Below, piece by piece: positions 1 to 21,017 of a DNA stretch of 21,017 nt (positions are counted from its first letter, which is position 1; every line of letters begins with the position of its first letter). Both the position numbers and the translations under genes were made by a program. The stretch comes from Bdellovibrionales bacterium (GTDB taxonomy: Bacteria; Bdellovibrionota; Bdellovibrionia; Bdellovibrionales; UBA1609), in contig CBDATP010000004.1 of NCBI GenBank assembly GCA_965199825.1, forward strand, positions 1-21,017, in the 5' to 3' direction. The notes below the pieces were generated by a model. That model worked only from the letters and a program-made list of their open reading frames with translations, did no database searches and had not been told where the DNA came from.

Positions 1-248
1 CAGTTAATTGTTTCACTCTATGAAAACAATATGGATAGCAATGAAAATTGCTTTTAAAATATGTTGAACACTTTGTAATCGCAGGTAAAATCGCAGGTGA
101 AATAACAAATCGAAAACTATTATACTGCCCCCGGGGCATGAAGAAAAAAGCTGAGACATTTGGTAAATACTTCATCGAAGTAACGATTGATGAAATAAAG
201 TCCGCTCCGGACCATCGAGGAGGTCGTCTCAGTAGCAGTATAATATTA

Positions 249-1136
249 CTGAAAATTAATGTGAGAATAAAATTAGTACACAAGTGGATGAATACCTTGT
301 ATCACATTGGTTGAAGCACGCCATTCAATAAAATCCAATCTATTTAATCACCTTGAAATTAATTGTATGATATAATATAACATTTTTAGAGTAATTACCT
401 TGATGGAAAACGCGTTCTTATCCAACTCGGGTACCTTGGGATCGTTAAACCCATCGAAGCGTTGAAACATCGCCCTGAGGTGTTGAAATGTTCAATCGTT
501 GAAGTCTTTCACTACAGTTCACGTCAATTCACTATAAGTCAATTCAGTATATGTCAATACAGTACACATCACTTCGGTACACACCACCTAAGTACACATC
601 ACTTCTCTGAAGAACATCTTCCTGAGGTGTTGAAATGTTCAATCGTTGAAGTCATTCACTACAGTTCACGTCGATTCACTATAAGTCAATTCAGTAAATG
701 TCAATACAGTACACATCACTTCGGTACACATCACTTCACTGAAGAATATCACTAACACAACACGAATCACCAGCACGCACACCAATCACATCACTATAAC
801 CTGAGAAAATAGAAGAAAAATATAATAAATTAGTTATTTCATTCAATTATAAATATATATTGAAATAATACCTTTGTGTAGCACCAATGTCTTACACTTT
901 TGCACGCATCTATGAAGCATCAGAGCTGGGAAATGTATGAAAAATGTTAATATTATGTGTTCATTCTCAAATTGATGAATATTACGTACCTCTTTAGAGC
1001 CACCAGTGTCGATATCGATGCTGTATGATGCTGTAGATGAACGTGTGATTGCTAGGAAAAAGATTAGGTCTTTTGCGGTGCTTTTTCGGAAATTCGTCGA
1101 AAAAAACTAAGTCTTTTTGGAAAAATCGGGCGTGAC
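249..1136 (-). other. Predicted spliced 5' leader of the RepHel gene (belonging to the upstream-truncated copy): GT-AG introns 295-249, 398-340, 871-801, 989-926 and possibly 1136-1052; repeated at +12187
   Basis: Minus-strand donors AAG|GTATT, AAG|GTAATT, AAG|GTATTA, GAG|GTACGT, CAG|GTCACG. Acceptors TTTTCAG, TTAAATAG, TTCTTCTATTTTCTCAG, ATTTCCCAG, TTTTTCCTAG. Introns are 47, 59, 71, 64 and 85 nt, mostly very AT-rich. Confidence 0.6.
474..750. repeat. 147-bp direct duplication with internal 9-18 bp subrepeats (AGTCAATTC, AGTACACATCACTTC); repeated at 12661-12937
   Basis: CCTGAGGTGTTGAAATGTTCAATCGTTGAAGTC occurs at 474 and 621; the second copy lacks one subrepeat. Confidence 0.9.
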
Positions 1137-1155: not shown

Positions 1156-1221
1156 GTAGTGTATCGGGGAACCGGGGGGAACCCAGAATTAGAGGCTCCC
1201 CCCGATTCCCCAACACACCAC
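1156..1221 (-). other. 28-bp stem-loop (10-nt loop) that pairs fully only on the minus strand; repeated at 13343-13408
   Basis: Arms 1156-1183 and 1194-1221: 23 Watson-Crick pairs and 5 A-C oppositions on plus, which are G-T/G-U pairs on minus. Confidence 0.8.
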
Positions 1222-1636
1222 TCGTTGCAATGTGAAGATAGTGTAGTTTAAAGTGTTTTTGTTGAAGTTATTATTAATAACAGGGGCATTGCCTCCCCTG
1301 GGCCCGTAGGCTCACTCGCCGTTAGAGCTAGGCTCAGCGCCGGCTGGGAATTACAGGCGATTCAAACCATTGGGTATGGTCCCAGTTGGCATCACTTTCG
1401 ATCATGTGCCTACACGCCACCGGGGGACTACATACCCGTACTCAGGTGCCCCCCGGCTTTGATCACTGGCCCGCCCGACCCTCGTAATACCCATGGGATA
1501 AATCCCATATGGGAACAAAAGCCCAAAAAAAGTGTGTATTTAGTTGTGCGCCTATTTTTGGATTTGCCGGGGATATACCCCCCCGGGCTGGGTACAGCCT
1601 CTAAGGAAAAAAGTTAAGTAAATTAAAATGAGATGA

Positions 1637-1674
1637 TAACCTAAATTAACCTAAACTAACCTAAGATAACCTAA
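1637..1674. repeat. Four TAACCTAA motifs at exact 10-bp spacing (TTAGG-containing on minus); repeated at 13824-13861
   Basis: TAACCTAA at 1637, 1647, 1657 and 1667. Confidence 0.85.
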
Positions 1675-1687
1675 AACTAAAACTAAA

Positions 1688-1854: not shown

Positions 1855-2108
1855 GTCCTATGACACATAGGACCCGGGGGGCCTCATGACACATGAGGCC
1901 CTTTCTAGGAGAGTTCTATGACACATAGAACTCTTCTTTAGGCCCTATGACACATAGGACCTTTATTAGACACCCATGAAACATGGGTGTCCCCTTAAGA
2001 GTTCTATGACACATAGGACTCTTTTAATAGAGCCTATGACACATAGGCTCCCCTTAGGGCCTCATGACACATGAGACCCTTTATAGATGTTCATGACACA
2101 TGAACATC
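1855..2108. repeat. Array of nine hairpins with a conserved ATG-ACA-CAT core and variable, self-complementary arms
   Basis: Cores at 1860, 1886, 1918, 1947, 1976 (ATGAAACAT), 2006, 2036, 2064 and 2093. Stems are 8-12 bp. Confidence 0.95.
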
Positions 2109-2144: not shown

Positions 2145-2740
2145 GGGCCCATAGACGAGTCAACGGGGGCCCCTTAACACCCAAGCTTCACCGCTCAACA
2201 CACAGGGCCCATAGACGAGTCAACGGAGGCCCCTTAACACCCAAGCTTCACCGCTCAACACACAGGGCCCATAGACGAGTCAACGGGGGCCCCTTAACAC
2301 CCAAGCTTCACCGCTCAACACACAGGGCCCATAGACGAGTCAACGGGGGCCCCTTAACACCCAAGCTTCACCGCTCAACACACAGGGCCCATAGACAAGT
2401 TAACGGGGGCCCCTTAACATTCAAGCTTCACCGCTCAACACACAGGGCCCATAGACGAGTCAACGGGGGCCCCTTAACACCCAAGCTTCTCCTCTCAACA
2501 CACAGGGCCCATAGACGAGTCAACGGGGGCCCCTTAACACCCAAGCTTCACCGCTCAACACACAGGGCCCATAGACGAGTCAACGGGGGCCCCTTAACAC
2601 CCAAGCTTCACCGCTCAACACACAGGGCCCATAGACGTGTCAACAGGGGCCCCTTAACACCCAAGCTTCTTCGCTCAACACACAGGGCCCATAGACGTGT
2701 CAACGGGGGCCCACTTAACACCCAAGCTTCTCTCAAAACA
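2145..2740. repeat. Ten tandem 60-bp repeats (GGGCCCATAGACGAGTCAACGGGGGCCCCTTAACACCCAAGCTTCACCGCTCAACACACA)
   Basis: Units start at 2145, 2205, ... 2685 with few substitutions; the last unit is degenerate. Confidence 0.97.
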
Positions 2741-2893
2741 ATACTTACCAAGTCTTCCCAATACTTACCAAGTCCTCCCCAATACTTACCATTACCCACC
2801 CAATACTTACCATTACCCACCCAATACTTACCAAGTCCCCCCAATACTTACCATTTCCCCCCAATACTTACCAATACCCACCAAATACTTACC
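2741..2893 (-). repeat. Eight 20-21-bp repeats with invariant ATACTTACCA (minus strand TGGTAAGTAT, a consensus 5' splice site/U1-complementary motif)
   Basis: ATACTTACC at 2741, 2761, 2782, 2803, 2824, 2844, 2864 and 2885, separated by variable C-rich spacers. Confidence 0.93.
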
Positions 2894-3094
2894 AGGTGTC
2901 ATTTTAGACACCAAGGCCCCCTATGGGTTAGCCTTAAGGTCGGAACCATTTTGGAAACCGCCTAAGTCTGGTCGGGGCCATATGGGCCACCGCCAGTGTG
3001 GTCCCCTTTTGGGCGACCACATTTCGGGCCAGTGCCATTTTAACAACTGCCCATATTCTGAGGGGTGCCTATACGGGCCTGACCCCAAATAGAA

Positions 3095-4200
3095 AATTTA
3101 TATTTCCTTAACTACAGGTCTGATATATGCACATGCCTATATAGATCGAATCTACTGGTCATAAGCTTTCCATCGATGTATCAATCAAAGCTCTACGATG
3201 AGTTTGAAAATTTCTCATTATAAAAATTTTCGAACCCGGAAGTAACTTTTAAAAATCAATAACTTAAAAAATATAAGTCTGAATTCGACATTCGATATGT
3301 CAATGGAAAGCTCTTGCCATAACCTTTCCGTCGATATACTTTTTATTTTCGTACGACGTTAATTCACGAAGTTAGTCATAAATAAAATTTGAGGCTCGTC
3401 CCGGCTCGAAGCCGAATATAAAAAATTGCGTAAAGCACCTATGTGATTCATCCAATGTATGTACATGCCTATATCGATTCAATGTGCTCATCGTCCCCTT
3501 TCTATTGATATACTATTCGATATCCCATGATGTGTTTGAAATTTTTTCCCATTATAAAAATAACCCGGAAGTAATTTCAAAAAATCATATCTCTGAAACT
3601 GTAGAGTTAATTATGTAAACATTGTATTTCGTTTTGAATTACAATTCATTAGGTATATTTTGGCATCAATAAAATTTCTCTACCTCCAACCTCGACGCTT
3701 TTTACATTATCCGGACATTGTTTTTTTCAGAGATGGGGCGAAAAATGATTTAAAATGAGCATAACTCTGAAACTCTAAGAGATAAAAATACACATGCCTA
3801 TTTCGTTTGAAACTATATTTTTAGTAGTATCTTTTGGCATCAAAAGATTTTTTCTATCATAATTTTGAAAATTTTGTCCATTATCGGGACATAGTTTTTT
3901 TCAGAGGTCGAATAAATAAACTTTGAAAAATCATATCTCAAAAACTGTAGATAGTAAAAATAAAATTTTAATATCATATTGTTCGATAATTTATTTTCTA
4001 TCTTGGTGAAAAAAATGCTCTATGTAGTACGCTTTGAACATATTAAAATTTTCGAATTTCCAAAAAAATCTCAAATAACTTTTTTTATGCTGCTAGAAGG
4101 TGCGTGAAAAAATCTTACCATTCGATAGACCACATATGGTTCTACAACGTTTTAATTAGGGTCTGAGCTGGGCCATCATTATTTACCGAGTTATTCGAAG
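3095..4200. repeat. Degenerate AT-rich tandem repeats of ~155-175 bp with internal dyad symmetry (about 6-7 units); repeated at ~15282-16387
   Basis: ACATGCCTAT at 3131, 3463 and 3792, with related motifs at 3288 and 3619. CCCGGAAGTAA at 3235 and 3564. TTTGGCATCAA and CATTATC(C/G)GGACAT each recur ~174 bp apart. Internal GGAAAG...CTTTCC dyad at ~3305-3329. Confidence 0.7.
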
Positions 4201-4503: not shown

Positions 4504-4564
4504 ATGAAATATAATAGCTACTGGCATCAAGCACCCCGATCGGCCAGTAGCTATTATATTTCAT
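4504..4564. repeat. Perfect 22-bp inverted repeat with 17-nt spacer (candidate terminal/junction or nicking structure)
   Basis: ATGAAATATAATAGCTACTGGC (4504-4525) and GCCAGTAGCTATTATATTTCAT (4543-4564), ~470 bp downstream of the RepHel stop. Confidence 0.9.
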
Positions 4565-4973
4565 ACGGGCGTGCGTTAGTGACCGCAGATAAACAGGAAT
4601 TATCAATTTAATCAGTAATATGTCAAATAGTAATTTTATTTAAATTAATGTGATGTTAAATAGCGGTTTCGTCTTTATTAAGACTCATCAGTATTACTTA
4701 GGACTCTTTATCCAGTAATAGACCGCATTTGGGGCCATTAAAAAATTTAAGTTTGAGCAGGTTTGAATTTTAAAAATATTTATTGAAAAATGATTATAAA
4801 AATGAATTATAAAAAAGAATACAAATTTATTTACAATAATATGAAACTTATATATGCCTTTAAAAAACGAATACAAATTGAAAGAAATTATAATTGAGGC
4901 TAAAAAACCGAAGCCATCTGATGTCCTTTAGTGCTGCCACGAAGTCGAATTGTCCTTTTGTTTGAAGTCATAA

Positions 4974-5034
4974 CTAGAACATGGATAAAAAATGTAATTA
5001 ATCAATATCAATTAATTTATATGATATTACATAC
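4974..5034 (-). other. Predicted 61-nt intron in the 3' UTR, starting 1 nt after the RepHel stop codon (copy 2: 17438-17498)
   Basis: TAAG|GTATGT donor and GTTCTAG| acceptor around an AT-rich 61-nt stretch. Several AATAAA hexamers follow on the minus strand (plus-strand TTTATT at ~4635-4835). Confidence 0.55.
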
Positions 5035-5035
5035 C

Positions 5036-8000
5036 TTATTCTTGAAGTATAAAATGAACATTTGGATAACGTCCTCGAAATGAATCATTTATTCTGTCGT
5101 CGTCACTGTCACGTCCAATCGGTAATAGATAAAATCGTTGATTGAGTTGTCTTGATGAAAGACAAGGATTTCCAAGTCTTGTTTGGCATGAATTAGTATC
5201 CGATCTAATTGGAATTAATGCTTGAAAATGTGTAGAACCACTTTCACCGACCATTTGTATTACTATTGGTCTAACTGAGACCGGGTATTTTTTCGAGCAT
5301 ATACGTCCACCTCTTCCTATAGAGTCAGGTTTAATCCAGAGATCAATTGGACGATTCACTACAATTGATGTCGCGATTTGATGTGGTAAATCAGCCCAAT
5401 GAAATGTGTTGGGACGAAGATTGTTGTCACCTTTGATGAACTTCTCGTAGACCTTTTCAATGTTGGGAAAAGGACTTGATGTTGCTATAGAGAAGCACAA
5501 TGGAGCTGGAGGCAATGCGAATATATTTGATAAGGGAGCAAAGTAGCCATCCCAGAATCTCAGAACTGCTGCAAGAGCGCCAAATCGAATAATATGGTAG
5601 TGTCTCTCTGTTGCAAACAAACACATGGAAACAGCTCTATACCAACAACTTCCGTCGCCAACCACATCAACTGCTTTATAATTGAGTTGAACATGTCTTT
5701 GAAGCCATTGTTGGCCTTGGAATCTTCGGATACTTGGCGGTAAGTCGTGAATTGTCTTGATATTAGCTGTGTTGAGCGTGTCTTTTACTCTCTTGGTTAA
5801 GGTTGGATAAAATTTCTTTATGAAATCATCGACGCTGGACTTTGATTCCTCAAGTAGAACGGAACTTATTAAAAGTTTGGTCAATGCATCCGCACATTCT
5901 GAGTCAAGATCAGTTAATATTTGAAATCTTGATTCAGTCGTATCACTTGAACTTGATGATGTAGATGGATGTGAGCGCTTCTGAGATGTATGTTCGGACG
6001 TGTCCATTTCGGATGGTGAAGGCAAGCCAGAGAGTGGTCTATTATCTGCATAAGTTGGATCAATTTGGGTTGAACCGGAGTAATTGATTGGTGGAATAAG
6101 ATTTTCAGTATCAAAAGGATACCAAATATCGTCGTGGATTTGTGGATTACCATCATGTTCTACATAACTAAATGATGTATCACTATTAGGAATTAGACAG
6201 TTGTAAAGTCTATGTTGAAAATCTAAAGACATGACGACAGATCTTCGATTATTTTGACTTCTTGGTGAATATCGGGTAACAACATTATGCTTTCCCATTA
6301 CCCAACAAATGTCTATTGGACGATCGATGGCTTCAGAAACGGCTAAGACTGCTGCGTTTTCGGCCCAATTAAATTGAAAGTCCAAAGTCCCCAATGGATT
6401 GTCGTCGCGTCTGAATCTTTCTTTATATGTGTCGTTAAATACTTTTTCTTTGATACCTTCAAATCTGACGGAAACAGCAATACTCAGGCATAAATCACAT
6501 GCGTTTCTGAATAGAGCTCCTTGATGCAAGTCCCATCTCTCCATTTGTTGACTCACACAAAATAGAGCAGCAAATCTAATAATTTGTTCGTAAGCTTGCT
6601 GTCCATAAAGAAGAACTGAAATTGAATAATAAAAGCAATTTCCATCGTGAGCAACATCGTATTGATGAAATTCGTTTGCGATGTTAGGAGGAATGAAGGG
6701 TTCGTGATAGTCTCGTACTCCATTCTTAATGGGGATACTCTGGTGATGTGTTGGTCCATTGATTGATAGAATTTCTTTCTGTCGAACTTCGTTAAGAACA
6801 TAAACGCCAAAATTAAACAAATCAATTTGACTGAAGGTTTGGCGAATAGTGTCATTGTCTCTGAAATGATTGAATCTGAATAACTGTCTGATTACTTCTT
6901 GCACTCTAGAAAGTGTTGATCCAGTTGTCGGAACAGTTATCCTTGGAATGATTGCAGATACAAAAGAAGTTCCAGGATGAGGTAGTGGCTGTGGTTGAGG
7001 TCTTGGTTGTGGTTTTGATGTTGGTTTTGGTGTTACTTTAGTCTCATGTTTAGGCTTGTCTTTAGATTGGGAGCTAATTTTGAAGTCTTTAAAGACATCT
7101 GCCATCTTCTGAGATGATGTGGGCTCTTCTGCTTCTTCTGCTTCTCCTTCTTCTTCTTCGTCTTTGCTTCTTGGATCTATGAATTTGTCGTCATATTTCC
7201 ATTGAGGGAAAGGGTAGTTTGGCTCCCTTTGATCTTCAGGAAGCAGAAAGTCATTATTCTCAATCCATTTTAGAAGTTCTTGATAATATAATTTGATGAA
7301 AATCTTCGTTTTATCGAATGCAATTAATCTCATATCGCTGGCACGTCTTGTTCTAGTAAGCGCAACATAAGCTTGTCCCGAAGCAAACATCTTCTCGTCA
7401 ACTGAAACATACACTTTGTCTAAAGTCTTCCCTTGAACGCGATGTACAGTTGCGGCCCAACCAAGTGATATTGGGAATTGTTGACGGATATATCTATTTT
7501 CGCCATAATCATCGATGGTTTGTTTCATTCTTCTGATTGGGAAGAATTCTTTGCCGTCTAGCGATCTCAAGATGATATAATTCGAATCTGGATGAATAGA
7601 ATCGACGATCGCTTGTCTTCCATTGACTAGGCCTTTGGCTACATTGATGTTTCTTCTTATGAATACTAATGCGTTCTTCTTGATTTTAAGAACGTTTTCC
7701 ATTTTCTCATCTTTTTCTTTAAGTCGTTTAAGTGATAATTCTGATAGTTTATGTCCAGACATATCAGTGTCGATAGCTTCGAAGCTGAATTCCTGTTCTT
7801 TTGATTTGGCTAATATATCATTGTTGAACTGATCTACTTGTGCGCGCAATGATACAATAATTGTTATGTTCTTCTCGAATGCAGACTGCTTCACGCGCTC
7901 AATATCTTTAACTACTTTAGACTTGAAATAATTGTTGACTTCTGGTGTGACATTGCCAACTCTGACGTATTGAAGCATTCTTGCGAATTCAGCATCTCCA

Positions 8001-11000
8001 GACTGTCTTACAATTTCTTTCATTGTGAAATTCTTAAACAATTTAAAGAACTGTCCATTGAACCATGGTGCGTATCGTGATGGTAATTGAGCTGGATCTC
8101 CAAACAGAATAATGTGTTTGCCGCCAAATTCTTTTCCTTTGTCGCAAAGTTTACAATTAATTCTGATGTTACGTTCCATTTCTTCCATCATCATTTCATC
8201 AATCATTGAAATCTCATCGATGAGGAAGACATCACAATAGCGCACGAGCCAAGATTCAATTGTGTTGGGCTGGATATGAGACTTGTACTTGGTGTCGAAT
8301 CTGAATTTTGAGTGACACGTTTGACCACCAAGTTGATGAGCAGCTGAACCAGTGGGAGCGAGGATTGAAAAGGACTTGTACGTTGATTCTTCTGTCTTGT
8401 CTTTAAATAGGGCACATAGCGCTTTGATGAGGAAAGACTTGCCTGTGCCTGCTGGTCCAACAATGTTCAATAAGACTTGTTCGTTTCTGCTTATCTGTTC
8501 TCGAATATAGTCGAAAACTTTGCGTTGATCTTCCGTGAAATCTTTTATGTAGTCTTCGAGTGGAAGTAAATCAACATTCGGACAAGGAAATTCACCAAAG
8601 TCTGGATCTGGGTCGATGCCTTCAATCAATTGTCCTTCGTCTAACTTATCGTTTTCCAGTAAGTGTGCCAATTGATGTGATTCGAAGAATGACTGGAATT
8701 GAGGATTACTAAGAAAATTGCCAGCTATGAGTTCGCCAGCTATTCTTCTCAAGTCATATTCGGTGAGTCCTTGGTTCTTTGCTGTCTCTAGAAATTGTTC
8801 ACCTATATTTGCATCGTTCCATAAGTTATTCTTGATGCAATATTCGAAATAACTTTTGCACTGATTCTTGGTTAAGAAGTCATCCCAATCTTCAGGTCGA
8901 AGTGGAACGCTTTCGAGGATGAGCTTCAAACAATACTTCTCTTGATCATCACCATATGGTAGAACGAAAGGGAAGTAAATAACAGCTGGTTTCCGTCTTG
9001 GCCGAATCTTGCGATGTCTTGAGTCAGTTAGTTCTAATTTCGGATCAGTGTGGACATCAGGTTGTGATTGATCCTCACATTCTTCGCCATCACCTTTGTC
9101 ATAATCATTGATTGCTTGAAGTGACTTCCTATCATAAGTGAATCTGCGCCAGAAGTCTGGATACGTGACATAATGTAGAATGCCAACATTTGGTCTGTGT
9201 AAATACTTCTCGAATTTTGATTGATAGAAGACATCTTCGGAATCCTCGTCTTTGGGCATATGCTCTTTTCGTTTGAGTGTTTTTCTCTTGACGTCTAATG
9301 GAATGTCTAGGAAAATGACCTCCACGTTCGAGACTTTTAGTGGAAATTGAAGTGAAATGTCGGCAATTTCAACAGCGCCCATTATTCTCATCTTCAAGTA
9401 CTTCTCATTCCAAGTCGCATTTTTGCTGAATGTCTGTCCGCCGAAAATTGGAAGCTTGACTGATGATTCAGGTTTCGATATATATTTTGCCAAATATATT
9501 TTCCAATATTCGCCATTAACTTCTTGGATATTACAACAAGATCTGAAGATGAGTAGCAATGACCAACAGTACGGAACGATAAACCGATCTTCTTCTTTAC
9601 GTCTCTTGTATAATACTCGAAGTCCGGAATCGTCTTTTCTTGCTTCGTTGACCAATGGCGCTGGAAAGTTGTACTTGCAATGGGGGAGAGCTTCGTTTCC
9701 TCTGATGAAACAGCGTTCCGGATAGTGGTCGTGTGTTTGCAGATCTTTGACGAGTCCTCGAAGTTTTTCGACGAATTCTATATCTGTTTCGTTCTTCGAA
9801 GTTGTTCGAGGCATCTCAGCTTTGACGACGTTTGCTCTTTTGGTGCCTTCCTCAATCCAAACAACACCATGGATATGCACCGCTCCTCTCTTCTGGTACT
9901 CTCGACGATACCAATGTCTCTCTACTTTACCCAACTCGCCACTTGGGTTATTGATAACATGTGTCATCCAAAGCTGAAACCTTTGATGGAATGAAATAGA
10001 ACTGAAGATAGGATAATCAGTTGCAGAATCTGCTTCTTTAGGCTTCGGTCGATGCGGGCATTGGTCACATTTGAAGCCAGGGCCATGTTTGATGAGAGAC
10101 TGCACTTCGGGCCAACTATCACTTGTCGTAACTGTGTAGAAGAAATCTGGCTCTCTCTTCATCTCATTTGCAATGGCCAATATCTCCTGTTGGCCTAACC
10201 ACCAGAAGCTCTTTGATCCGGGGATGTTTGCTGCGACCGCTGTGCCATATTTCTTGTATGCTTCTGATCTTGGGTCGATGAATTCTTTGGCTGTTGGCTT
10301 CTCCATCGCTCTATCACTATCTGCAGCCACATACATGCGTGCATGATTTACCATGCTGATTTTGATGTAACGGTCAATCAGGAAGAAAGGCAACACATTA
10401 TTCTGTCGGAAACGCCTGTCCAAATTCAACAGTAAGAATTTGATGTAATTACGATGACTAATGTGTTTCCAATCAGGGTCATAAGAGCCACGACCACTTG
10501 GAAAGTCACAAGGAAATGCCATTGCTTCTAGTCTTTTATCGAATAATGTGACACGAGTTTGTTTCCTGAGATCTGATACAGTGTCGTCTGTCTTTGGATG
10601 ACATATATGAGGATTGAAGTCATCTCCTTCGATGTCTTTGTCGCCAGTATAGTTTTCGCTGGGAATAACATAACCGATCCTCTCACGATCTAACTCGTCG
10701 ATGATGTCTGATCCTTTCGTCGTCTCTATTTCTCCTGGTTGAATCATCTCAAGGATGCTACCGCCCTTCAATTTGCCAAACAATGTTTGACAATTGGCAT
10801 AGAAACTTCTGAAATGAATGTTGTTTCTTATTAGCCATCGAAGCGCTTTTCTTGCGTTTTCGTGTTGTTGTCTTATGTTCTTCTTTCGTGCTTCGCATGG
10901 TCGACCGACTATGAGGCCATACATGTATAAGTAGGCCTGATCTACTTTACGCGCTAGGTTGACTTCACCGCGAAGATGGAGAAAATGCCTTAAATATTCC

Positions 11001-12103
11001 TTCTGACGTATGTTGATGTTGTGGTAGACAGCGAGTAAACCGATTAGTCCTCTTTCCAAATCAGTTGTGATATTCTTGAGAACTGGCGGCAAATCCATTT
11101 TGTGTGTCTCTGGATTGAGCACATCGATGTAGTCTGTGATGCATTTGCCTTTAGCACTGAGTTGAAAGCATACGCGACAAGTGTATATCTCATTGTTGTC
11201 TGTCTTGTATGGTAGATCTGCTTGTTGTGGGATGTCTTCTGCATTAAAGTGTTCTTCGATTGGAAACACAAATTCACTTTGACTGAAAGCATGCGAAGAA
11301 AACTTCTTATCGAATCGATTAATTTTCTTCCAGCGACCATTAATTCGTGAATCACCGAATAATAGTTTGGCACAAATGCAACACAAGCCTTTGAACATTG
11401 GTTCTTCGCCGTGGACATATCCGATTCGCCACATTCTTTTGATGTTATCGAGATTGTTTGGTAAGTTGTCTTCGATGTTAACAGCTTTGGCGAGATCTTC
11501 TTTGGTTAAGTCGTCTTCTACTTCTTTGATGATAGCTTGCACTTCTTTTGAATTCTTCTTCTGCTGTTCTTTGAAGATCTTGTTAAACATTTTCCTCAAC
11601 CACTCACTTGTGCCTTCGAAGTCAGGAAATTCACGCTTAAATTCTTCATACATTGGTGCCACATAAGGAATCATTAGTCCCGATCTTTCTTTCTCTCTTT
11701 CCTGTCTTCCTTGCCATTTGATGCCTATAGCCAGAAGTCGAAGTTGAACACCAATAGGCCAACGGAATTGTTTTGGTGCATCAGGATCTTTAACTGTTGG
11801 TTGCAGCAGTTTATCTAATTTAGTTCTGATGGCTTCGTTTGTTGGTCCTCTTCTTTTCAATAAACTCTTGAACTTTTGGGAAACACTATTAACATATTCA
11901 CTATAAGTCATTGACGATCTATCGAAGTCTTTAGAAACACTAAGTAATAGTTCCTCTGCTTCTTTATTCCACTGAAACCGCCACTTCTTGGGTCCACCAC
12001 CGCTAGTGTCTTGTTTGGTGAATTCTAAATGTTGTTCGAAGATGTCTTCAAACGATTCATGATCACACATGTCAGATGACATGACAGTCTCAAGGACTGC
12101 CAT
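5036..12103 (-). CDS. Helitron-like Rep/Helicase (RepHel) transposase: 2x Myb/SANT-like, CxxC..CxxC, HUH Rep, PIF1-family SF1B helicase, 2x OTU-like cysteine protease domains
   Basis: Intact ORF. The track starts it at a TTG (12127); the first ATG is at 12103, giving 2355 aa. Rep motif I PDFFYTVT (~10127-10150), motif II EYQKRGAVHIH (9869-9901), motif III YLAKYISK (9473-9496). Helicase Walker A GPAGTGKS (8435-8458), APTGSAA, IDEISM, FGGKHIILFGDPAQLP, QFPISLGWAATVHRVQGKTL, GQAYVALTR. OTU-like DGNCFYYSIS (~6620-6646) and DGSCWYRAVS (~5627-5656) with HFQAL (His 5228-5230). Confidence 0.95.
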   Translation of the reverse strand: MAVLETVMSSDMCDHESFEDIFEQHLEFTKQDTSGGGPKKWRFQWNKEAEELLLSVSKDFDRSSMTYSEYVNSVSQKFKSLLKRRGPTNEAIRTKLDKLLQPTVKDPDAPKQFRWPIGVQLRLLAIGIKWQGRQEREKERSGLMIPYVAPMYEEFKREFPDFEGTSEWLRKMFNKIFKEQQKKNSKEVQAIIKEVEDDLTKEDLAKAVNIEDNLPNNLDNIKRMWRIGYVHGEEPMFKGLCCICAKLLFGDSRINGRWKKINRFDKKFSSHAFSQSEFVFPIEEHFNAEDIPQQADLPYKTDNNEIYTCRVCFQLSAKGKCITDYIDVLNPETHKMDLPPVLKNITTDLERGLIGLLAVYHNINIRQKEYLRHFLHLRGEVNLARKVDQAYLYMYGLIVGRPCEARKKNIRQQHENARKALRWLIRNNIHFRSFYANCQTLFGKLKGGSILEMIQPGEIETTKGSDIIDELDRERIGYVIPSENYTGDKDIEGDDFNPHICHPKTDDTVSDLRKQTRVTLFDKRLEAMAFPCDFPSGRGSYDPDWKHISHRNYIKFLLLNLDRRFRQNNVLPFFLIDRYIKISMVNHARMYVAADSDRAMEKPTAKEFIDPRSEAYKKYGTAVAANIPGSKSFWWLGQQEILAIANEMKREPDFFYTVTTSDSWPEVQSLIKHGPGFKCDQCPHRPKPKEADSATDYPIFSSISFHQRFQLWMTHVINNPSGELGKVERHWYRREYQKRGAVHIHGVVWIEEGTKRANVVKAEMPRTTSKNETDIEFVEKLRGLVKDLQTHDHYPERCFIRGNEALPHCKYNFPAPLVNEARKDDSGLRVLYKRRKEEDRFIVPYCWSLLLIFRSCCNIQEVNGEYWKIYLAKYISKPESSVKLPIFGGQTFSKNATWNEKYLKMRIMGAVEIADISLQFPLKVSNVEVIFLDIPLDVKRKTLKRKEHMPKDEDSEDVFYQSKFEKYLHRPNVGILHYVTYPDFWRRFTYDRKSLQAINDYDKGDGEECEDQSQPDVHTDPKLELTDSRHRKIRPRRKPAVIYFPFVLPYGDDQEKYCLKLILESVPLRPEDWDDFLTKNQCKSYFEYCIKNNLWNDANIGEQFLETAKNQGLTEYDLRRIAGELIAGNFLSNPQFQSFFESHQLAHLLENDKLDEGQLIEGIDPDPDFGEFPCPNVDLLPLEDYIKDFTEDQRKVFDYIREQISRNEQVLLNIVGPAGTGKSFLIKALCALFKDKTEESTYKSFSILAPTGSAAHQLGGQTCHSKFRFDTKYKSHIQPNTIESWLVRYCDVFLIDEISMIDEMMMEEMERNIRINCKLCDKGKEFGGKHIILFGDPAQLPSRYAPWFNGQFFKLFKNFTMKEIVRQSGDAEFARMLQYVRVGNVTPEVNNYFKSKVVKDIERVKQSAFEKNITIIVSLRAQVDQFNNDILAKSKEQEFSFEAIDTDMSGHKLSELSLKRLKEKDEKMENVLKIKKNALVFIRRNINVAKGLVNGRQAIVDSIHPDSNYIILRSLDGKEFFPIRRMKQTIDDYGENRYIRQQFPISLGWAATVHRVQGKTLDKVYVSVDEKMFASGQAYVALTRTRRASDMRLIAFDKTKIFIKLYYQELLKWIENNDFLLPEDQREPNYPFPQWKYDDKFIDPRSKDEEEEGEAEEAEEPTSSQKMADVFKDFKISSQSKDKPKHETKVTPKPTSKPQPRPQPQPLPHPGTSFVSAIIPRITVPTTGSTLSRVQEVIRQLFRFNHFRDNDTIRQTFSQIDLFNFGVYVLNEVRQKEILSINGPTHHQSIPIKNGVRDYHEPFIPPNIANEFHQYDVAHDGNCFYYSISVLLYGQQAYEQIIRFAALFCVSQQMERWDLHQGALFRNACDLCLSIAVSVRFEGIKEKVFNDTYKERFRRDDNPLGTLDFQFNWAENAAVLAVSEAIDRPIDICWVMGKHNVVTRYSPRSQNNRRSVVMSLDFQHRLYNCLIPNSDTSFSYVEHDGNPQIHDDIWYPFDTENLIPPINYSGSTQIDPTYADNRPLSGLPSPSEMDTSEHTSQKRSHPSTSSSSSDTTESRFQILTDLDSECADALTKLLISSVLLEESKSSVDDFIKKFYPTLTKRVKDTLNTANIKTIHDLPPSIRRFQGQQWLQRHVQLNYKAVDVVGDGSCWYRAVSMCLFATERHYHIIRFGALAAVLRFWDGYFAPLSNIFALPPAPLCFSIATSSPFPNIEKVYEKFIKGDNNLRPNTFHWADLPHQIATSIVVNRPIDLWIKPDSIGRGGRICSKKYPVSVRPIVIQMVGESGSTHFQALIPIRSDTNSCQTRLGNPCLSSRQLNQRFYLLPIGRDSDDDRINDSFRGRYPNVHFILQE

Positions 12104-12169
12104 GGCTAGAAATTCTATAATAATCAATTTGTTAATAGGTTTTGACCTTTAATTATATTAGAATTATAC

Positions 12170-12511
12170 CTTTCGAACGACTATGTGCAGTTAATTGTTT
12201 CACTCTATGAAAACAATATGGATAGCAATGAAAATTGCTTTTAAAATATGTTGAACACTTTGTAATCGCAGGTAAAATCGCAGGTGAAATAACAAATCGA
12301 AAACTATTATACTGCCCCCGGGGCATGAAGAAAAAAGCTGAGACATTTGGTAAATACTTCATCGAAGTAACGATTGATGAAATAAAGTCCGCTCCGGACC
12401 ATCGAGGAGGTCGTCTCAGTAGCAGTATAATATTACTGAAAATTAATGTGAGAATAAAATTAGTACACAAGTGGATGAATACCTTGTATCACATTGGTTG
12501 AAGCACGCCAT
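12170..12511 (-). CDS. Candidate upstream coding exons of RepHel (12511-12483 and 12435-12170), adding 99 aa in frame
   Basis: ATG at 12511. Intron 12482-12436 (AAG|GTATT...TTTTCAG) and intron 12169-12106 (AAG|GTATAA...TTTCTAG|CCATGG). 29+266+2=297 nt, in frame and stop-free into the ATG at 12103. Inferred from splice consensus only; no recognisable domain in the extension. Confidence 0.45.
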
Positions 12512-14041
12512 TCAATAAAATCCAATCTATTTAATCACCTTGAAATTAATTGTATGATATAATATAACATTTTTAGAGTAATTACCTTGATGGAAAACGC
12601 GTTCTTATCCAACTCGGGTACCTTGGGATCGTTAAACCCATCGAAGCGTTGAAACATCGCCCTGAGGTGTTGAAATGTTCAATCGTTGAAGTCTTTCACT
12701 ACAGTTCACGTCAATTCACTATAAGTCAATTCAGTATATGTCAATACAGTACACATCACTTCGGTACACACCACCTAAGTACACATCACTTCTCTGAAGA
12801 ACATCTTCCTGAGGTGTTGAAATGTTCAATCGTTGAAGTCATTCACTACAGTTCACGTCGATTCACTATAAGTCAATTCAGTAAATGTCAATACAGTACA
12901 CATCACTTCGGTACACATCACTTCACTGAAGAATATCACTAACACAACACGAATCACCAGCACGCACACCAATCACATCACTATAACCTGAGAAAATAGA
13001 AGAAAAATATAATAAATTAGTTATTTCATTCAATTATAAATATATATTGAAATAATACCTTTGTGTAGCACCAATGTCTTACACTTTTGCACGCATCTAT
13101 GAAGCATCAGAGCTGGGAAATGTATGAAAAATGTTAATATTATGTGTTCATTCTCAAATTGATGAATATTACGTACCTCTTTAGAGCCACCAGTGTCGAT
13201 ATCGATGCTGTATGATGCTGTAGATGAACGTGTGATTGCTAGGAAAAAGATTAGGTCTTTTGCGGTGCTTTTTCGGAAATTCGTCGAAAAAAACTAAGTC
13301 TTTTTGGAAAAATCGGGCGTGACCTGTGTACTGAGCTTCTTCGTAGTGTATCGGGGAACCGGGGGGAACCCAGAATTAGAGGCTCCCCCCGATTCCCCAA
13401 CACACCACTCGTTGCAATGTGAAGATAGTGTAGTTTAAAGTGTTTTTGTTGAAGTTATTATTAATAACAGGGGCATTGCCTCCCCTGGGCCCGTAGGCTC
13501 ACTCGCCGTTAGAGCTAGGCTCAGCGCCGGCTGGGAATTACAGGCGATTCAAACCATTGGGTATGGTCCCAGTTGGCATCACTTTCGATCATGTGCCTAC
13601 ACGCCACCGGGGGACTACATACCCGTACTCAGGTGCCCCCCGGCTTTGATCACTGGCCCGCCCGACCCTCGTAATACCCATGGGATAAATCCCATATGGG
13701 AACAAAAGCCCAAAAAAAGTGTGTATTTAGTTGTGCGCCTATTTTTGGATTTGCCGGGGATATACCCCCCCGGGCTGGGTACAGCCTCTAAGGAAAAAAG
13801 TTAAGTAAATTAAAATGAGATGATAACCTAAATTAACCTAAACTAACCTAAGATAACCTAAAACTAAAACTAAACACATTTTTAAAGTCCCACAAGGGGA
13901 CTATAAAAGCTCCACTGTTATTTTAACAGTGGGCTTCACATATTTATAGTCCCCTGAGGGGACTTTAAAGGCTCCACTGTTATTTTAACAGTGGGCCTCA
14001 CATATTTATAGTCCCCTGAGGGGACTTTTTTATTTCCCTAA

Positions 14042-14295
14042 GTCCTATGACACATAGGACCCGGGGGGCCTCATGACACATGAGGCCCTTTCTAGGAGAG
14101 TTCTATGACACATAGAACTCTTCTTTAGGCCCTATGACACATAGGACCTTTATTAGACACCCATGAAACATGGGTGTCCCCTTAAGAGTTCTATGACACA
14201 TAGGACTCTTTTAATAGAGCCTATGACACATAGGCTCCCCTTAGGGCCTCATGACACATGAGACCCTTTATAGATGTTCATGACACATGAACATC
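14042..14295. repeat. Copy-2 array of nine ATG-ACA-CAT hairpins
   Basis: Identical by eye to 1855-2108 (+12187). Confidence 0.95.
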
Positions 14296-14331
14296 CCCTT
14301 AAAATAAACTATATAAACTTTATAACAGACG

Positions 14332-14927
14332 GGGCCCATAGACGAGTCAACGGGGGCCCCTTAACACCCAAGCTTCACCGCTCAACACACAGGGCCCATA
14401 GACGAGTCAACGGAGGCCCCTTAACACCCAAGCTTCACCGCTCAACACACAGGGCCCATAGACGAGTCAACGGGGGCCCCTTAACACCCAAGCTTCACCG
14501 CTCAACACACAGGGCCCATAGACGAGTCAACGGGGGCCCCTTAACACCCAAGCTTCACCGCTCAACACACAGGGCCCATAGACAAGTTAACGGGGGCCCC
14601 TTAACATTCAAGCTTCACCGCTCAACACACAGGGCCCATAGACGAGTCAACGGGGGCCCCTTAACACCCAAGCTTCTCCTCTCAACACACAGGGCCCATA
14701 GACGAGTCAACGGGGGCCCCTTAACACCCAAGCTTCACCGCTCAACACACAGGGCCCATAGACGAGTCAACGGGGGCCCCTTAACACCCAAGCTTCACCG
14801 CTCAACACACAGGGCCCATAGACGTGTCAACAGGGGCCCCTTAACACCCAAGCTTCTTCGCTCAACACACAGGGCCCATAGACGTGTCAACGGGGGCCCA
14901 CTTAACACCCAAGCTTCTCTCAAAACA
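14332..14927. repeat. Copy-2 array of ten 60-bp repeats
   Basis: Same unit number and same variant positions as 2145-2740. Confidence 0.97.
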
Positions 14928-15080
14928 ATACTTACCAAGTCTTCCCAATACTTACCAAGTCCTCCCCAATACTTACCATTACCCACCCAATACTTACCAT
15001 TACCCACCCAATACTTACCAAGTCCCCCCAATACTTACCATTTCCCCCCAATACTTACCAATACCCACCAAATACTTACC
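14928..15080 (-). repeat. Copy-2 array of eight ATACTTACCA repeats
   Basis: Identical by eye to 2741-2893. Confidence 0.93.
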
Positions 15081-16730
15081 AGGTGTCATTTTAGACACCA
15101 AGGCCCCCTATGGGTTAGCCTTAAGGTCGGAACCATTTTGGAAACCGCCTAAGTCTGGTCGGGGCCATATGGGCCACCGCCAGTGTGGTCCCCTTTTGGG
15201 CGACCACATTTCGGGCCAGTGCCATTTTAACAACTGCCCATATTCTGAGGGGTGCCTATACGGGCCTGACCCCAAATAGAAAATTTATATTTCCTTAACT
15301 ACAGGTCTGATATATGCACATGCCTATATAGATCGAATCTACTGGTCATAAGCTTTCCATCGATGTATCAATCAAAGCTCTACGATGAGTTTGAAAATTT
15401 CTCATTATAAAAATTTTCGAACCCGGAAGTAACTTTTAAAAATCAATAACTTAAAAAATATAAGTCTGAATTCGACATTCGATATGTCAATGGAAAGCTC
15501 TTGCCATAACCTTTCCGTCGATATACTTTTTATTTTCGTACGACGTTAATTCACGAAGTTAGTCATAAATAAAATTTGAGGCTCGTCCCGGCTCGAAGCC
15601 GAATATAAAAAATTGCGTAAAGCACCTATGTGATTCATCCAATGTATGTACATGCCTATATCGATTCAATGTGCTCATCGTCCCCTTTCTATTGATATAC
15701 TATTCGATATCCCATGATGTGTTTGAAATTTTTTCCCATTATAAAAATAACCCGGAAGTAATTTCAAAAAATCATATCTCTGAAACTGTAGAGTTAATTA
15801 TGTAAACATTGTATTTCGTTTTGAATTACAATTCATTAGGTATATTTTGGCATCAATAAAATTTCTCTACCTCCAACCTCGACGCTTTTTACATTATCCG
15901 GACATTGTTTTTTTCAGAGATGGGGCGAAAAATGATTTAAAATGAGCATAACTCTGAAACTCTAAGAGATAAAAATACACATGCCTATTTCGTTTGAAAC
16001 TATATTTTTAGTAGTATCTTTTGGCATCAAAAGATTTTTTCTATCATAATTTTGAAAATTTTGTCCATTATCGGGACATAGTTTTTTTCAGAGGTCGAAT
16101 AAATAAACTTTGAAAAATCATATCTCAAAAACTGTAGATAGTAAAAATAAAATTTTAATATCATATTGTTCGATAATTTATTTTCTATCTTGGTGAAAAA
16201 AATGCTCTATGTAGTACGCTTTGAACATATTAAAATTTTCGAATTTCCAAAAAAATCTCAAATAACTTTTTTTATGCTGCTAGAAGGTGCGTGAAAAAAT
16301 CTTACCATTCGATAGACCACATATGGTTCTACAACGTTTTAATTAGGGTCTGAGCTGGGCCATCATTATTTACCGAGTTATTCGAAGGGCTCACTTTGGC
16401 ATTTTTCAAGGTGTTCCTGGGTAGCTCAAGGAGGCAGGACCTCCTTATTAAAGATATTATTCGAGAGGGCTTTGGAAGTACTATCATTGCTATAAATATC
16501 ATTATTCTAAGTTATAGGGTTTAAGAAATATAGCTGTTCAAAAATCGACGGAAAAATTTGGGGGAGGAGGGGGTCTAAGCCCCTGGAATAATAACCGTTG
16601 TTTACCAATTATATTTTTTGGTTGGTGTGTGATGCTCTATCGAGTAGGTATAATTAAAAGTTACGGCCTCTTTAGTTGGTCGGGTCCGAAATGAAATATA
16701 ATAGCTACTGGCATGGCTACTGGCATCTAC

Positions 16731-17240
16731 TGGCATCAAGCACCCCGATCGGCCAGTAGCTATTATATTTCATACGGGCGTGCGTTAGTGACCGCAGATA
16801 AACAGGAATTATCAATTTAATCAGTAATATGTCAAATAGTAATTTTATTTAAATTAATGTGATGTTAAATAGCGGTTTCGTCTTTATTAAGACTCATCAG
16901 TATTACTTAGGACTCTTTATCCAGTAATAGACCGCATTTGGGGCCATTAAAAAATTTAAGTTTGAGCAGGTTTGAATTTTAAAAATGGCATCAAGCACCC
17001 CGATCGGCCAGTAGCTATTATATTTCATACGGGCGTGCGTTAGTGACCGCAGATAAACAGGAATTATCAATTTAATCAGTAATATGTCAAATAGTAATTT
17101 TATTTAAATTAATGTGATGTTAAATAGCGGTTTCGTCTTTATTAAGACTCATCAGTATTACTTAGGACTCTTTATCCAGTAATAGACCGCATTTGGGGCC
17201 ATTAAAAAATTTAAGTTTGAGCAGGTTTGAATTTTAAAAA
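16731..17240. repeat. 255-bp tandem duplication unique to copy 2 (equivalent to copy-1 4522-4776), preceded by two micro-duplications totalling 22 bp
   Basis: TGGCATCAAGCACCCC starts at 16731 and again at 16986. Extra GGCTACTGGCAT and CTACTGGCAT lie in 16715-16736. 22+255=277 matches the offset change. Confidence 0.93.
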
Positions 17241-17499
17241 TATTTATTGAAAAATGATTATAAAAATGAATTATAAAAAAGAATACAAATTTATTTACAA
17301 TAATATGAAACTTATATATGCCTTTAAAAAACGAATACAAATTGAAAGAAATTATAATTGAGGCTAAAAAACCGAAGCCATCTGATGTCCTTTAGTGCTG
17401 CCACGAAGTCGAATTGTCCTTTTGTTTGAAGTCATAACTAGAACATGGATAAAAAATGTAATTAATCAATATCAATTAATTTATATGATATTACATACC

Positions 17500-20400
17500 T
17501 TATTCTTGAAGTATAAAATGAACATTTGGATAACGTCCTCGAAATGAATCATTTATTCTGTCGTCGTCACTGTCACGTCCAATCGGTAATAGATAAAATC
17601 GTTGATTGAGTTGTCTTGATGAAAGACAAGGATTTCCAAGTCTTGTTTGGCATGAATTAGTATCCGATCTAATTGGAATTAATGCTTGAAAATGTGTAGA
17701 ACCACTTTCACCGACCATTTGTATTACTATTGGTCTAACTGAGACCGGGTATTTTTTCGAGCATATACGTCCACCTCTTCCTATAGAGTCAGGTTTAATC
17801 CAGAGATCAATTGGACGATTCACTACAATTGATGTCGCGATTTGATGTGGTAAATCAGCCCAATGAAATGTGTTGGGACGAAGATTGTTGTCACCTTTGA
17901 TGAACTTCTCGTAGACCTTTTCAATGTTGGGAAAAGGACTTGATGTTGCTATAGAGAAGCACAATGGAGCTGGAGGCAATGCGAATATATTTGATAAGGG
18001 AGCAAAGTAGCCATCCCAGAATCTCAGAACTGCTGCAAGAGCGCCAAATCGAATAATATGGTAGTGTCTCTCTGTTGCAAACAAACACATGGAAACAGCT
18101 CTATACCAACAACTTCCGTCGCCAACCACATCAACTGCTTTATAATTGAGTTGAACATGTCTTTGAAGCCATTGTTGGCCTTGGAATCTTCGGATACTTG
18201 GCGGTAAGTCGTGAATTGTCTTGATATTAGCTGTGTTGAGCGTGTCTTTTACTCTCTTGGTTAAGGTTGGATAAAATTTCTTTATGAAATCATCGACGCT
18301 GGACTTTGATTCCTCAAGTAGAACGGAACTTATTAAAAGTTTGGTCAATGCATCCGCACATTCTGAGTCAAGATCAGTTAATATTTGAAATCTTGATTCA
18401 GTCGTATCACTTGAACTTGATGATGTAGATGGATGTGAGCGCTTCTGAGATGTATGTTCGGACGTGTCCATTTCGGATGGTGAAGGCAAGCCAGAGAGTG
18501 GTCTATTATCTGCATAAGTTGGATCAATTTGGGTTGAACCGGAGTAATTGATTGGTGGAATAAGATTTTCAGTATCAAAAGGATACCAAATATCGTCGTG
18601 GATTTGTGGATTACCATCATGTTCTACATAACTAAATGATGTATCACTATTAGGAATTAGACAGTTGTAAAGTCTATGTTGAAAATCTAAAGACATGACG
18701 ACAGATCTTCGATTATTTTGACTTCTTGGTGAATATCGGGTAACAACATTATGCTTTCCCATTACCCAACAAATGTCTATTGGACGATCGATGGCTTCAG
18801 AAACGGCTAAGACTGCTGCGTTTTCGGTCCAATTAAATCGAAAGTCCAAAGTCCCCAATGGATTGTCGTCGCGTCTGAATCTTTCTTTAGATGTGTCGTT
18901 AAATACTTTTTCTTTGATACCTTCAAATCTGACGGAAACAGCAATACTCAGGCAAAAATCATATGCGTTTCTGAATAGAGCTCCTTGATGCAAGTCCCAT
19001 CTCTCCATTTGTTGACTCACACAAAATAGAGCAGCAAATCTAATAATTTGTTCATAAGCTTGCTGTCCATAAAGAAGAACTGAAATTGAATAATAAAAGC
19101 AATTTCCATCGTGAGCAACATCGTATTGATGAAATTCGTTTGCGATGTTAGGAGGAATGAAGGGTTCGTGATAGTCTCGTACTCCATTCTTAATGGGGAT
19201 ACTCTGGTGATGTGTTGGAACATTGATTGATAGAATTTCTTTCTGTCGAACTTCGTTAAGAACATAAACGCCAAAATCTAAACAAATCAACTTGACTGAA
19301 GGTTTGGCGAATAGTGTCATTGTCTCTGAAATGATTGAATCTGAATAACTGTCTGATTACTTCTTGCACTCTAGAAAGTCTTGATCCAGTTGTCGGAATA
19401 GTTATCCTTGGAATGATTGCAGATACAAATGAAGTTCCAGGATGAGGTAGTGGCTGTGGTTGAGGTCTTGGTTGTGGTTTTGATGTTGGTTTAGGTGTTA
19501 CTTGAGTCTCATGTTTAGGCTTGTCTTTAGATTGGGAGCTAATTTTGAAGTCTTTACCGACATCTGCCATCTTCTGAGATGATGTGGGCTCTTCTGCTTC
19601 TTCTGCTTCTCCTTCTTCTTCTTCGTCATTTGCTTCTTGGATCTATGAATTTGTCGTCATATTTCCATTGAGGGAAAGGGTAGTTTGGCTCCCTTTGATC
19701 TTCAGGAGGCAGAAAGTCATTATTCTCAATCCATTTTAGAAGTTCTTGATAATATAATTTGATGAAAATCTTCGTTATATCGAATGCAATTAATCTCATA
19801 TCGCTGGCACGTCTTGTTCTAGTAAGCGCAACATAAGCTTGTCCCGAAGCAAACATCATCTCGTCTACTGAAACATACACTTTGTCTAAAGTCTTCCCTT
19901 GAACGCGATGTACAGTTGCGGCCCAACCAAGTGATATTGGGAATTGTTGACGGATATATCTATTTTCGCCATAATCATCGATGGTTTGTTTCATTGTTCT
20001 GATTGGGAAGAATTCTTTGCCGTCTAGCGATCTCAAGATGATATAATTCGAATCTGGATGAATAGAATCGACGATCGCTTGTCTTCCATTGACTAGGCCT
20101 TTGGCTACATTGAAGTTTCTTCCTATGAATAATAATGCGTTCTTCTTGATTTTAAGAACGTTTACCATTTTCTCATCTATTTCTTTAAGTCGTTTAAGTG
20201 ATAATTCTGATAGTTGATGTCCAGACATATCAGTATCGATAGCTTCGAAGCTGAATTCCTGTTCTTTTGATTTGGCTAATATATCATTGTTGAACTGATC
20301 TACTTGTGCGCGCAATGATACAATAATTGTTATGTTCTTCTCGAATGCAGACTGCTTCACGCGCTCAATATCTTTAACGACTTTAGACTTGAAATAATTG

Positions 20401-21017
20401 TTGACTTCTGGTGTGACATTGCCAACTCTGACGTATTGAAGCATTCTTGCGAATTCAGCATCTCCAGACTGTCTTACAATTTCTTTCATTGTGAAATTCT
20501 TAAACAATTTAAAGAACTGTCCATTGAACCATGGTGCGTATCGTGATGGTAATTGAGCTGGATCTCCAAACAGAATAATGTGTTTGCCGCCAAATTCTTT
20601 TCCTTTGTCGCAAAGTTTACAATTAATTCTGATGTTACGTTCCATTTCTTCCATCATCATTTCATCAATCATTGAAATCTCATCGATGAGGAAGACATCA
20701 CAATAGCGCACGAGCCAAGATTCAATTGTGTTGGGCTGGATATGAGACTTGTACTTGGTGTCGAATCTGAATTTTGAGTGACACGTTTGACCACCAAGTT
20801 GATGAGCAGCTGAACCAGTGGGAGCGAGGATTGAAAAGGACTTGTACGTTGATTCTTCTGTCTTGTCTTTAAATAGGGCACATAGCGCTTTGATGAGGAA
20901 AGACTTGCCTGTGCCTGCTGGTCCAACAATGTTCAATAAGACTTGTTCGTTTCTGCTTATCTGTTCTCGAATATAGTCGAAAACTTTGCGTTGATCTTCC
21001 GTGAAATCTTTTATGTA
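17500..21017 (-). pseudogene. Frameshifted copy of RepHel (helicase plus OTU part; the 5' part lies beyond the window)
   Basis: Two 1-nt insertions relative to copy 1, at 19278 (C) and 19628 (A, creating TGA at 19626-19628). They split the frame into the 436-, 104- and 606-aa ORFs of the track. About 29 substitutions between ~18828 and ~20379. Could instead be sequencing or assembly error. Confidence 0.75.

Follow-up and report, generated by a model that had tools for sequence, protein, structure and literature searches.

What could keep nine neighbouring hairpins paired while their stems diverge from one another and their tips stay the same? The question is raised by positions 1855 to 2108 of the window (the whole stretch of DNA that was analysed, 21,017 nucleotides and an entire contig, called the hairpin contig below), which a first-pass annotation had described as an array of hairpins with a fixed core and co-varying arms in a Helitron-like context. 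The array and its neighbours are arranged as follows.

1156 to 1221, minus strand: 29-bp hairpin with 23 Watson-Crick pairs, the other pairs being G.T(U) in six of six cases
1636 to 1687, plus strand: degenerate (CCTAA)n-like tract, beside the hairpin block
1693 to 1841, no strand assigned: five hairpins adjoining the array, of two other types, in a 62-bp unit repeated 2.5 times, with loops TGA, TTT and one of 5 nt
1855 to 2108, no strand assigned: nine-hairpin array (H1-H9), stems of 8-14 bp, core ATG-ACA-CAT, co-varying arms
2137 to 2730, no strand assigned: ordinary 60-bp minisatellite, 9.9 copies at 95% identity, fold z -0.7
2739 to 2894, minus strand: 21-bp repeat with eight copies of GGTAAGTAT, a motif found nowhere else in the 12.2-kb unit

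All nine hairpins and their arm sequences were verified as originally listed, with cores at 1860, 1886, 1918, 1947, 1976, 2006, 2036, 2064 and 2093, and the reported core-to-core distance of 26-32 nt was reproduced. The core is ATGACACAT in eight of the nine units and ATGAAACAT in the ninth; it reads ATG-TGT-CAT on the minus strand, and the loop is inverted in none of the nine. Six stems are perfect and three (H4, H6 and H8) have one internal mismatch each, again as reported. Alternation of the spacers produces a period of two units, about 58 nt, from which the array appears to have grown as a two-unit repeat. The units are mutually 65-71% alike and their divergence is paired: arms differ between units at 0.57 per site, and Watson-Crick pairs fill 57 of the 63 arm cells. 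Permuting the right arms between units lowers the mean to 31.9, and 57 is attained in 12 of 362,880 permutations. All seven variable arm pairs have changed on both sides (21 cells; matched in 0 of 500 shuffles, which is not a probability since the units are related). We therefore agree that the arms co-vary with pairing kept, and that minisatellite drift alone would not have preserved it. As DNA the array folds at -73.9 kcal/mol (z -15.2, with none of 200 shuffles as low). It is not a chance product. A coding explanation was rejected, as no open reading frame of 100 aa covers the array.

Two parts of the original description needed narrowing. The core is fixed in all nine units (one with an AAA loop) but in only nine of the 14 hairpins of the surrounding block, and related copies carry deletions in it. 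The arms, called distinct, do differ overall, but H2 and H8 share a left arm, as do H3 and H6, and cross-pair at 6-7 of 7 positions. Since these units cross-pair and the minimum-energy fold of the minus strand as RNA is nested and long-range, not a comb, the statement that each hairpin can fold only locally was too strong.

The array is the bigger part of a block of 14 hairpins within 416 nt (1693-2108; fold z -22.7), 13 of which have 3-nt loops; the maximum number of such hairpins per 420 nt is four in the 2.78-Mb bacterial chromosome of the same assembly versus 14 on the hairpin contig. Between copies 1 and 2 of the adjoining 62-mer, an A.A mismatch has been exchanged for T.T, and an A-T pair has become G-C by a double change past a bulge. 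The minus strand of the 62-mer contains TATAAATA twice, with CAGT 31 nt downstream. Four tandem arrays lie between 1688 and 2894, among them the GGTAAGTAT repeat 640 nt upstream of the nine hairpins (motif positions 2749-2893), whose motif is the 5' splice-site consensus, the complement of the U1 5' end. This repeat likewise has a constant core with variable flanks, here G-rich spacers. On the minus strand, alternate spacers of the nine-hairpin array read TATAAA, ATTAAA, AATAAA or TAGAAA, and AATAAA follows the last unit. The 29-bp hairpin is of pre-miRNA size, lies 100 nt before a predicted splice acceptor and has no Rfam family.

The hairpin contig belongs to an assembly made up of the bacterial chromosome and four small repeat contigs, and it has no match in that chromosome. 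One of the other small contigs (C2) carries a Ty3/gypsy-type pol. A bacterial or phage origin was rejected on the missing chromosome match, the predicted spliceosomal introns and this neighbour; the hairpin contig and C2-C4 are eukaryotic strays in a bacterial assembly. Element DNA, or part of it, occurs in 11 sequencing runs from five studies, four of the runs labelled lichen metagenome and none of those listed being RNA. Our guess at the host, from the short introns and the CCTAA-like tract, is a small invertebrate. In two of the runs (X2 and X5) the tract shows excess depth and CCTAA-type loose ends.

A 12,187-bp unit is repeated in tandem on the contig, 1.7 copies in all, with these main parts.

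1 to 1052, minus strand: predicted spliced leader of RepHel, with five predicted introns of 47-71 nt
4504 to 4564, minus strand: tandem junction with a 22-bp perfect inverted repeat and an 8-bp palindrome
4528 to 16714, minus strand: complete Helitron-like unit of 12,187 bp, its ends inferred from the tandem junction and its junctions being element-element only
5036 to 12103, minus strand: RepHel open reading frame, 2355 aa, with Helitron_like_N (E 2e-22), PIF1 (E 1e-22) and two weak OTU-like stretches
14042 to 14295, no strand assigned: second identical nine-hairpin array, lying 2.4-2.7 kb from the inferred 5' end of the complete element copy, with the RepHel ATG 1.9 kb further on
16706 to 17241, minus strand: second junction, where short 5' termini of 10 and 12 nt are repeated and a mini copy of 255 nt occurs

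The second array is part of the tandem duplication (offset 12187, no mismatch before 4528) and is not independent. The two Pfam matches of RepHel are PF14214 and PF05970, with an HxH motif, and together with the asymmetric inverted ends they bear out the Helitron-like context. Its N-terminus gives a weak Myb/SANT-like lead (score 0.78), and Pfam finds no Myb domain, AP endonuclease or DUF6570 in the protein; among seven relatives scanned, DUF6570 fell below cut-off in three. The predicted leader (1-1052 and 12104-13239, minus strand) is 840 nt long, with 17 upstream ATGs and a 147-bp duplication inside; its last two predicted exons are in frame with the RepHel open reading frame and would add about 100 codons, and a predicted splice acceptor lies at 1052. 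A second RepHel copy (17500-21017) is 99.2% identical and frameshifted, while the first 4.5 kb of that copy, which is non-coding, is an exact match to the first copy. At the second junction the mini copy consists of 6 nt of the 5' end joined to the last 249 nt, and three separate duplications break at one point, inside the inverted-repeat loop; this shared break point likely marks the nick site.

Does the array then belong to a known kind of element? The fused HUH Rep and Pif1 helicase is that of Helitron-like elements. The ends do not have the HLE1 form (5'-TC, CTRR-3' and a single subterminal hairpin): on the strand of the open reading frame the junction reads CTTG and then ATGCC, with ends inferred, and CTTG is described as an alternative end of Helraiser. 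Rep motif 2 is WYRREYQKRGAVHIH, with GAVH in place of the GLPH of HLE1, and GAVH is neither of the two diagnostic forms (GLPH, GSPH) given in PMC4067079. One arm of the inverted repeat lies 2 nt from 4527, the inferred 5' end, and the other 15 nt from 4528, the inferred 3' end, which is the asymmetric plan of Helitron2/HLE2 (a 5' arm within 0-2 bp of the terminus and a subterminal 3' arm; PMC3627910). The 5'-terminal hairpin of HLE2 is absent (first 70 nt, fold z 0.37), and at the 3' end an 8-bp palindrome is present, with a fold z of 0.6 for the final 43 nt. In a quick tree of 44 relatives, midpoint-rooted and without labelled reference proteins, RepHel falls in its own supported, mostly GAVH-type clade beside mostly GSPH-type rows. 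We call the element HLE2-like, from these sequence traits, rather than a member of HLE2, because the 5' hairpin, DUF6570 and the C-terminal AP endonuclease of Helentrons are missing and because of its GAVH motif. A GAVH-motif RepHel clade with 22-bp asymmetric ends thus fits poorly into the described groups. This clade has 47 representatives at E below 1e-30, and RepHel clusters suggest tandem copies elsewhere, with two members each on contigs of 39.6 kb and 26 kb.

The element resembles HLE2, HINE, DINE-1 and Cg_HINE (PMC3627910, PMC4067079, PMC7492417, PMC11417382) in a RepHel with OTU-like domains, asymmetric inverted ends, internal tandem arrays and tandem copies, and the Fusarium Helitrons FoHeli (PMC5148889) in having multiple 5' termini. 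It differs from HLE2 in the length of the inverted ends (22 bp versus the 8-15 described), the lack of a 5' hairpin and DUF6570, and GAVH instead of GSPH. Central repeats of HINEs are already known (PMC4067079, PMC7492417), and the four arrays here likewise stand between the terminal modules; those repeats, however, are satellite-like monomers free of structural constraint, and the descriptions consulted mention no palindromes whose arms co-vary around a fixed tip, whereas units of the present array diverge in pairs. Satellites inside Paramecium Helitrons are also known (PMC13085455), and these share with our element ordered internal satellites, dissimilar units of uniform size (Mosaic) and compensatory changes in the terminal RTS stem-loops. 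Mosaic, in contrast, comprises 11 unrelated 44-nt segments not described there as shared-core hairpins, and the co-variation lies between elements rather than between tandem units.

The constraint pattern across the nine units matches that of the Helraiser 3' terminator hairpin (PMC4778049), in which the loop and closing pair matter and the stem is exchangeable. Helraiser, however, is an HLE1 element with a single hairpin, adjacent to its 3' end, whereas here there are nine, internal, 2.4 kb from the 5' end and with another loop; moreover, the core motif is absent from both ends of our element, so it is not the terminator. Outside Helitrons, baculovirus hrs (PMC4535591) are tandem 24-bp palindromes serving replication and transcription with an effect that scales with their number, but they are highly conserved, occupy several loci per genome and belong to a duplex virus, unlike arms that differ at more than half of their sites. 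CsrB and RsmZ (PMC4894983) present one short loop motif to one protein on many stem-loops; they are free-standing bacterial RNAs with GGA loops, whereas the array is eukaryotic, known from DNA, and has loops ACA/TGT without GGA. LIMP/HyLIMP of Lobosphaera mitochondria (PMC4524435) combine an invariant loop with variable stems showing complementary changes, and LIMP have been proposed as origins, but they are dispersed, with internally repetitive stems and loops in both orientations, and the proposed function is likewise unproven. In the open literature that was searched, we found no published description of an internal array of fixed-tip, co-varying hairpins in a Helitron, in line with the original remark that no description of this architecture in Helitron-like elements was known.

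The first-pass annotation had left a choice between selection on structure and a fold-back mechanism that rewrites one arm from the other. The two are better read as acting together, with the near-perfect stems consistent with fold-back and selection required to hold the 9-nt core invariant. Fold-back template switching can make compensatory stem changes in one step and its intrastrand form spares the loop (PMC8794818), and strand switching regenerates the origin palindromes of a rolling-circle virus (PMC2690592). Such a process can account for the paired arms, for the indels mirrored between array units and for the exchange of A.A for T.T in the 62-mer. Under it, neither the loop nor the inner pairs would change more slowly, which is why the core is likely kept by selection, even with five of the 14 block hairpins using other cores. 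The core has one change in six independent sites versus 11-15 changes over seven arm columns (11 by states minus one, 12-13 on an edit-distance tree, 15 by parsimony), giving P of 8e-4 to 4e-5, or 0.008 with only eight events allowed; the three-nt loop alone versus the arms gives P of only 0.01-0.05. The nine units are partly chosen by their core, since five neighbours carry other cores. Of 54,000 neutral fold-back simulations, 34,416 matched the arm diversity (ungapped, in a model without indels), and none of these had a core with at most one change.

Related copies bear on the same question. Contigs from four of the 11 runs were aligned to 1000-2136, all at about 93% identity or above at the DNA level; two (X2 and X3, from other studies with other organism labels) cover the array, and coverage of the other two (X5 and X7) ends at about 1840. 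Both X2 and X3 have the array joined to the element flanks, with variants of their own, which largely refutes the idea that the array is a host satellite captured by this copy only. The mismatches of H4 and H6 are paired in X2 and X3, and the terminal G.T of H3 is G-C in both; because X2 and X3 pair them, these flaws look recent in the copy on the hairpin contig. Substitution sites occur at 10 of 65 spacer bases versus 3 of 209 stem and core bases (P 5e-5), with six of the ten spacer changes coming from one contig of depth 4.8. As the density in stems and core equals that of the flank (12 of 842), the contrast is one of fast spacers, not of slow stems. Two-sided changes were not seen between relatives.

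Homologues without the array, or with arms decaying unpaired, had been named as evidence against the proposal. The array is kept in X2 and X3, but related copies do show damage: a 3-nt deletion at 1949 in the H4 core of X2 (49 of 86 depth), a 2-nt deletion at 1893 in the H2 core of X3 (4.8 of 12.6 depth), a pair broken at 1957 (G>A), a 3-nt gap at 2020 (a contig end lies too close for its partner side to be read), and the loss of unit H3 in one variant. Damage that segregates among copies, yet is missing from the nine units after their long divergence, would be expected if active lineages are under selection and their units are redundant; the same segregating damage to cores and pairs would also fit weak or no function.

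Searches further afield returned no relative of the array. Protein-based scans of viral, metagenome and genome contigs found no homologous DNA with flanks. A scan for the core pattern gave 60 viral loci with unrelated repeats (two with 4-5 paired flanking bases, none an array), 19 metagenome loci with unrelated ATGACACAT repeats and one genome-contig locus with an unrelated 11-bp repeat; none of 79 pattern loci matched the whole sequence by tblastn or blastn. The splice-motif pattern gave no loci, and 40 related bacterial genomes gave one weak 38-nt match, to the CCTAA-like tract. Rfam returned nothing at gathering score (4 and 31 weak matches in two scans). All 19 metagenome repeats have at most four paired flanking bases, so the core alone does not breed arms.

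We tentatively favour, at less than even confidence, a selected multi-site DNA docking array, whose tips would likely be read by RepHel or a replication factor on the displaced strand and whose arms would likely be re-paired by fold-back. Units may have multiplied by slippage or unequal exchange, as the two-unit period and the unit lost in a relative suggest. During rolling-circle replication, when the strand is single, fold-back template switching would copy a mutation in one arm to the other; selection would act on the tip sequence and on the presence of a stem roughly one helical turn long, whatever the stem sequence. Nine copies could then provide avidity and redundancy, with single damaged units tolerated; binding might load or pause RepHel or prime the second strand of the circle. 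The constancy of the core relative to the arms and the simulations speak for docking, as do the 3-nt loops of 13 block hairpins. In Helraiser, a swapped stem kept about 90% of activity, and an altered 3-nt loop and closing pair were equivalent to deletion (PMC4778049). Reading the ends as inferred from the tandem junction makes the minus strand the top strand of the element, which in Helitrons is the strand that is peeled off (PMC4778049, PMC13085455). Against docking stand the lack of the core motif at either terminus, the distance between this element and Helraiser as an HLE1 element, and the core deletions, broken pair and lost unit in relatives. In a bolder form, the comb would be an internal cis-element that the picture of Helitron replication has lacked, serving as a multi-site single-strand origin or a loading platform for RepHel and turning the peeled strand into a replicating circle, with self-renewed stems and selected tips; this strikes us as quite improbable.

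The same stems could instead act as RNA. In a primary transcript of the minus strand (first intron or leader), a CsrB-like scaffold of UGU tips would tune splicing or premature polyadenylation of RepHel; we regard this as a minority possibility, on the unlikely side. The array does lie between the eight 5' splice-site motifs and the predicted acceptor at 1052 with its spliced leader, its alternate spacers carry poly(A)-signal-like hexamers, and the wobble pairs of the 29-bp hairpin all point to the minus strand (6 of 6, P 0.016), which indicates that this strand is selected to fold. The first non-Watson-Crick pair per unit is a minus-strand G.T in six of nine units, but three related units and three changes private to this copy enter into that count. 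As DNA the two strands differ little in energy (-73 and -76 kcal/mol), while the RNA energies favour the minus strand (-135 vs -127), although the minimum-energy RNA fold is nested and not a comb. Array stems are far poorer in wobble (2 of 91 minus-strand G.T pairs) than the 29-bp hairpin 470 nt away (6 of 29; P 0.002), and this near-absence fits DNA-level pairing or erasure by fold-back better than RNA. Moreover, the gene model is a prediction, and the Rfam scans yielded no family. Roquin CDE (UGU triloop) and TIGR/CRISPR-like arrays were dropped on a misfitting closing stem and misfitting partner genes.

The core could also be read as duplex, nine binding sites forming an enhancer or iteron, hr-like, by the TATA/CAGT-like promoter of the 62-mer, with neutral arms made palindromic by fold-back. 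This reading, which we judge unlikely, accounts equally well for the fixed core, the free arms and the missing wobble bias, and for it speak the regular spacing, the paired TATAAATA and CAGT motifs and the Myb/SANT-like stretch of RepHel, a lead only, for which Pfam shows no Myb domain. The core is one base from the AP-1/GCN4 site. In a baculovirus, palindrome arrays are origin and enhancer in proportion to copy number (PMC4535591), but hr repeats are highly conserved throughout and these arms are not. Fold-back would be needed often enough to give 88 of 91 perfect pairs, yet three one-sided changes persist in both tandem copies, and the uniform stem length and the 3-nt loops of the other five hairpins would be left unexplained. 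A functionless palindromic minisatellite, amplified by slippage and with arms homogenised by fold-back on an exposed single strand, seems to us rather improbable. Template switching that creates and maintains stems while its intrastrand form spares the loop, palindromes regenerated in a rolling-circle virus origin, and the internal satellites common in HLE2 and Paramecium Helitrons, all from the sources cited above, fit it, as do damaged units segregating at high depth and stems that change no slower than flanks. Loops and innermost pairs are nearly invariant, however, though fold-back gives them no protection; none of the nine contiguous units has decayed, and the 19 unrelated metagenome repeats lack arms. 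Finally, Helitrons capture host DNA and the contig has strayed into a bacterial assembly, but a host satellite captured by a single copy or an assembly artefact is very improbable given the arrays of X2 and X3, in their element flanks and with their own variants, and the absence of the array from contigs C1-C4.

Overall, the array is probably selected, and its design is unusual. The internal repeats of Helitrons are mostly regarded as passengers from which satellite DNA arises, and functions have been tested only at termini; the clean split between sequence constraint on tips and structural constraint on stems points to a possible third cis-element. The array lends itself readily to a series of mutants (altered loop, disrupted arm, compensatory repair) and is a compact natural test of whether template switching alone maintains hairpins; even a neutral array would preserve an unusual trace of fold-back mutations in an element that replicates by rolling circle.

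Other repeats accompany the array. At 2930-3060 there is a further GC-rich hairpin cluster (z -4.6), and 3127-3951 contains diverged repeats with periods of about 174 and 330 bp. Contig C2 also has two orphan open reading frames and a 320-bp repeat. C3 and C4 consist of non-coding tandem repeats of about 3.46 and 2.135 kb, which share 1.67 kb at 96% and are unrelated to the ends of the Helitron-like element.
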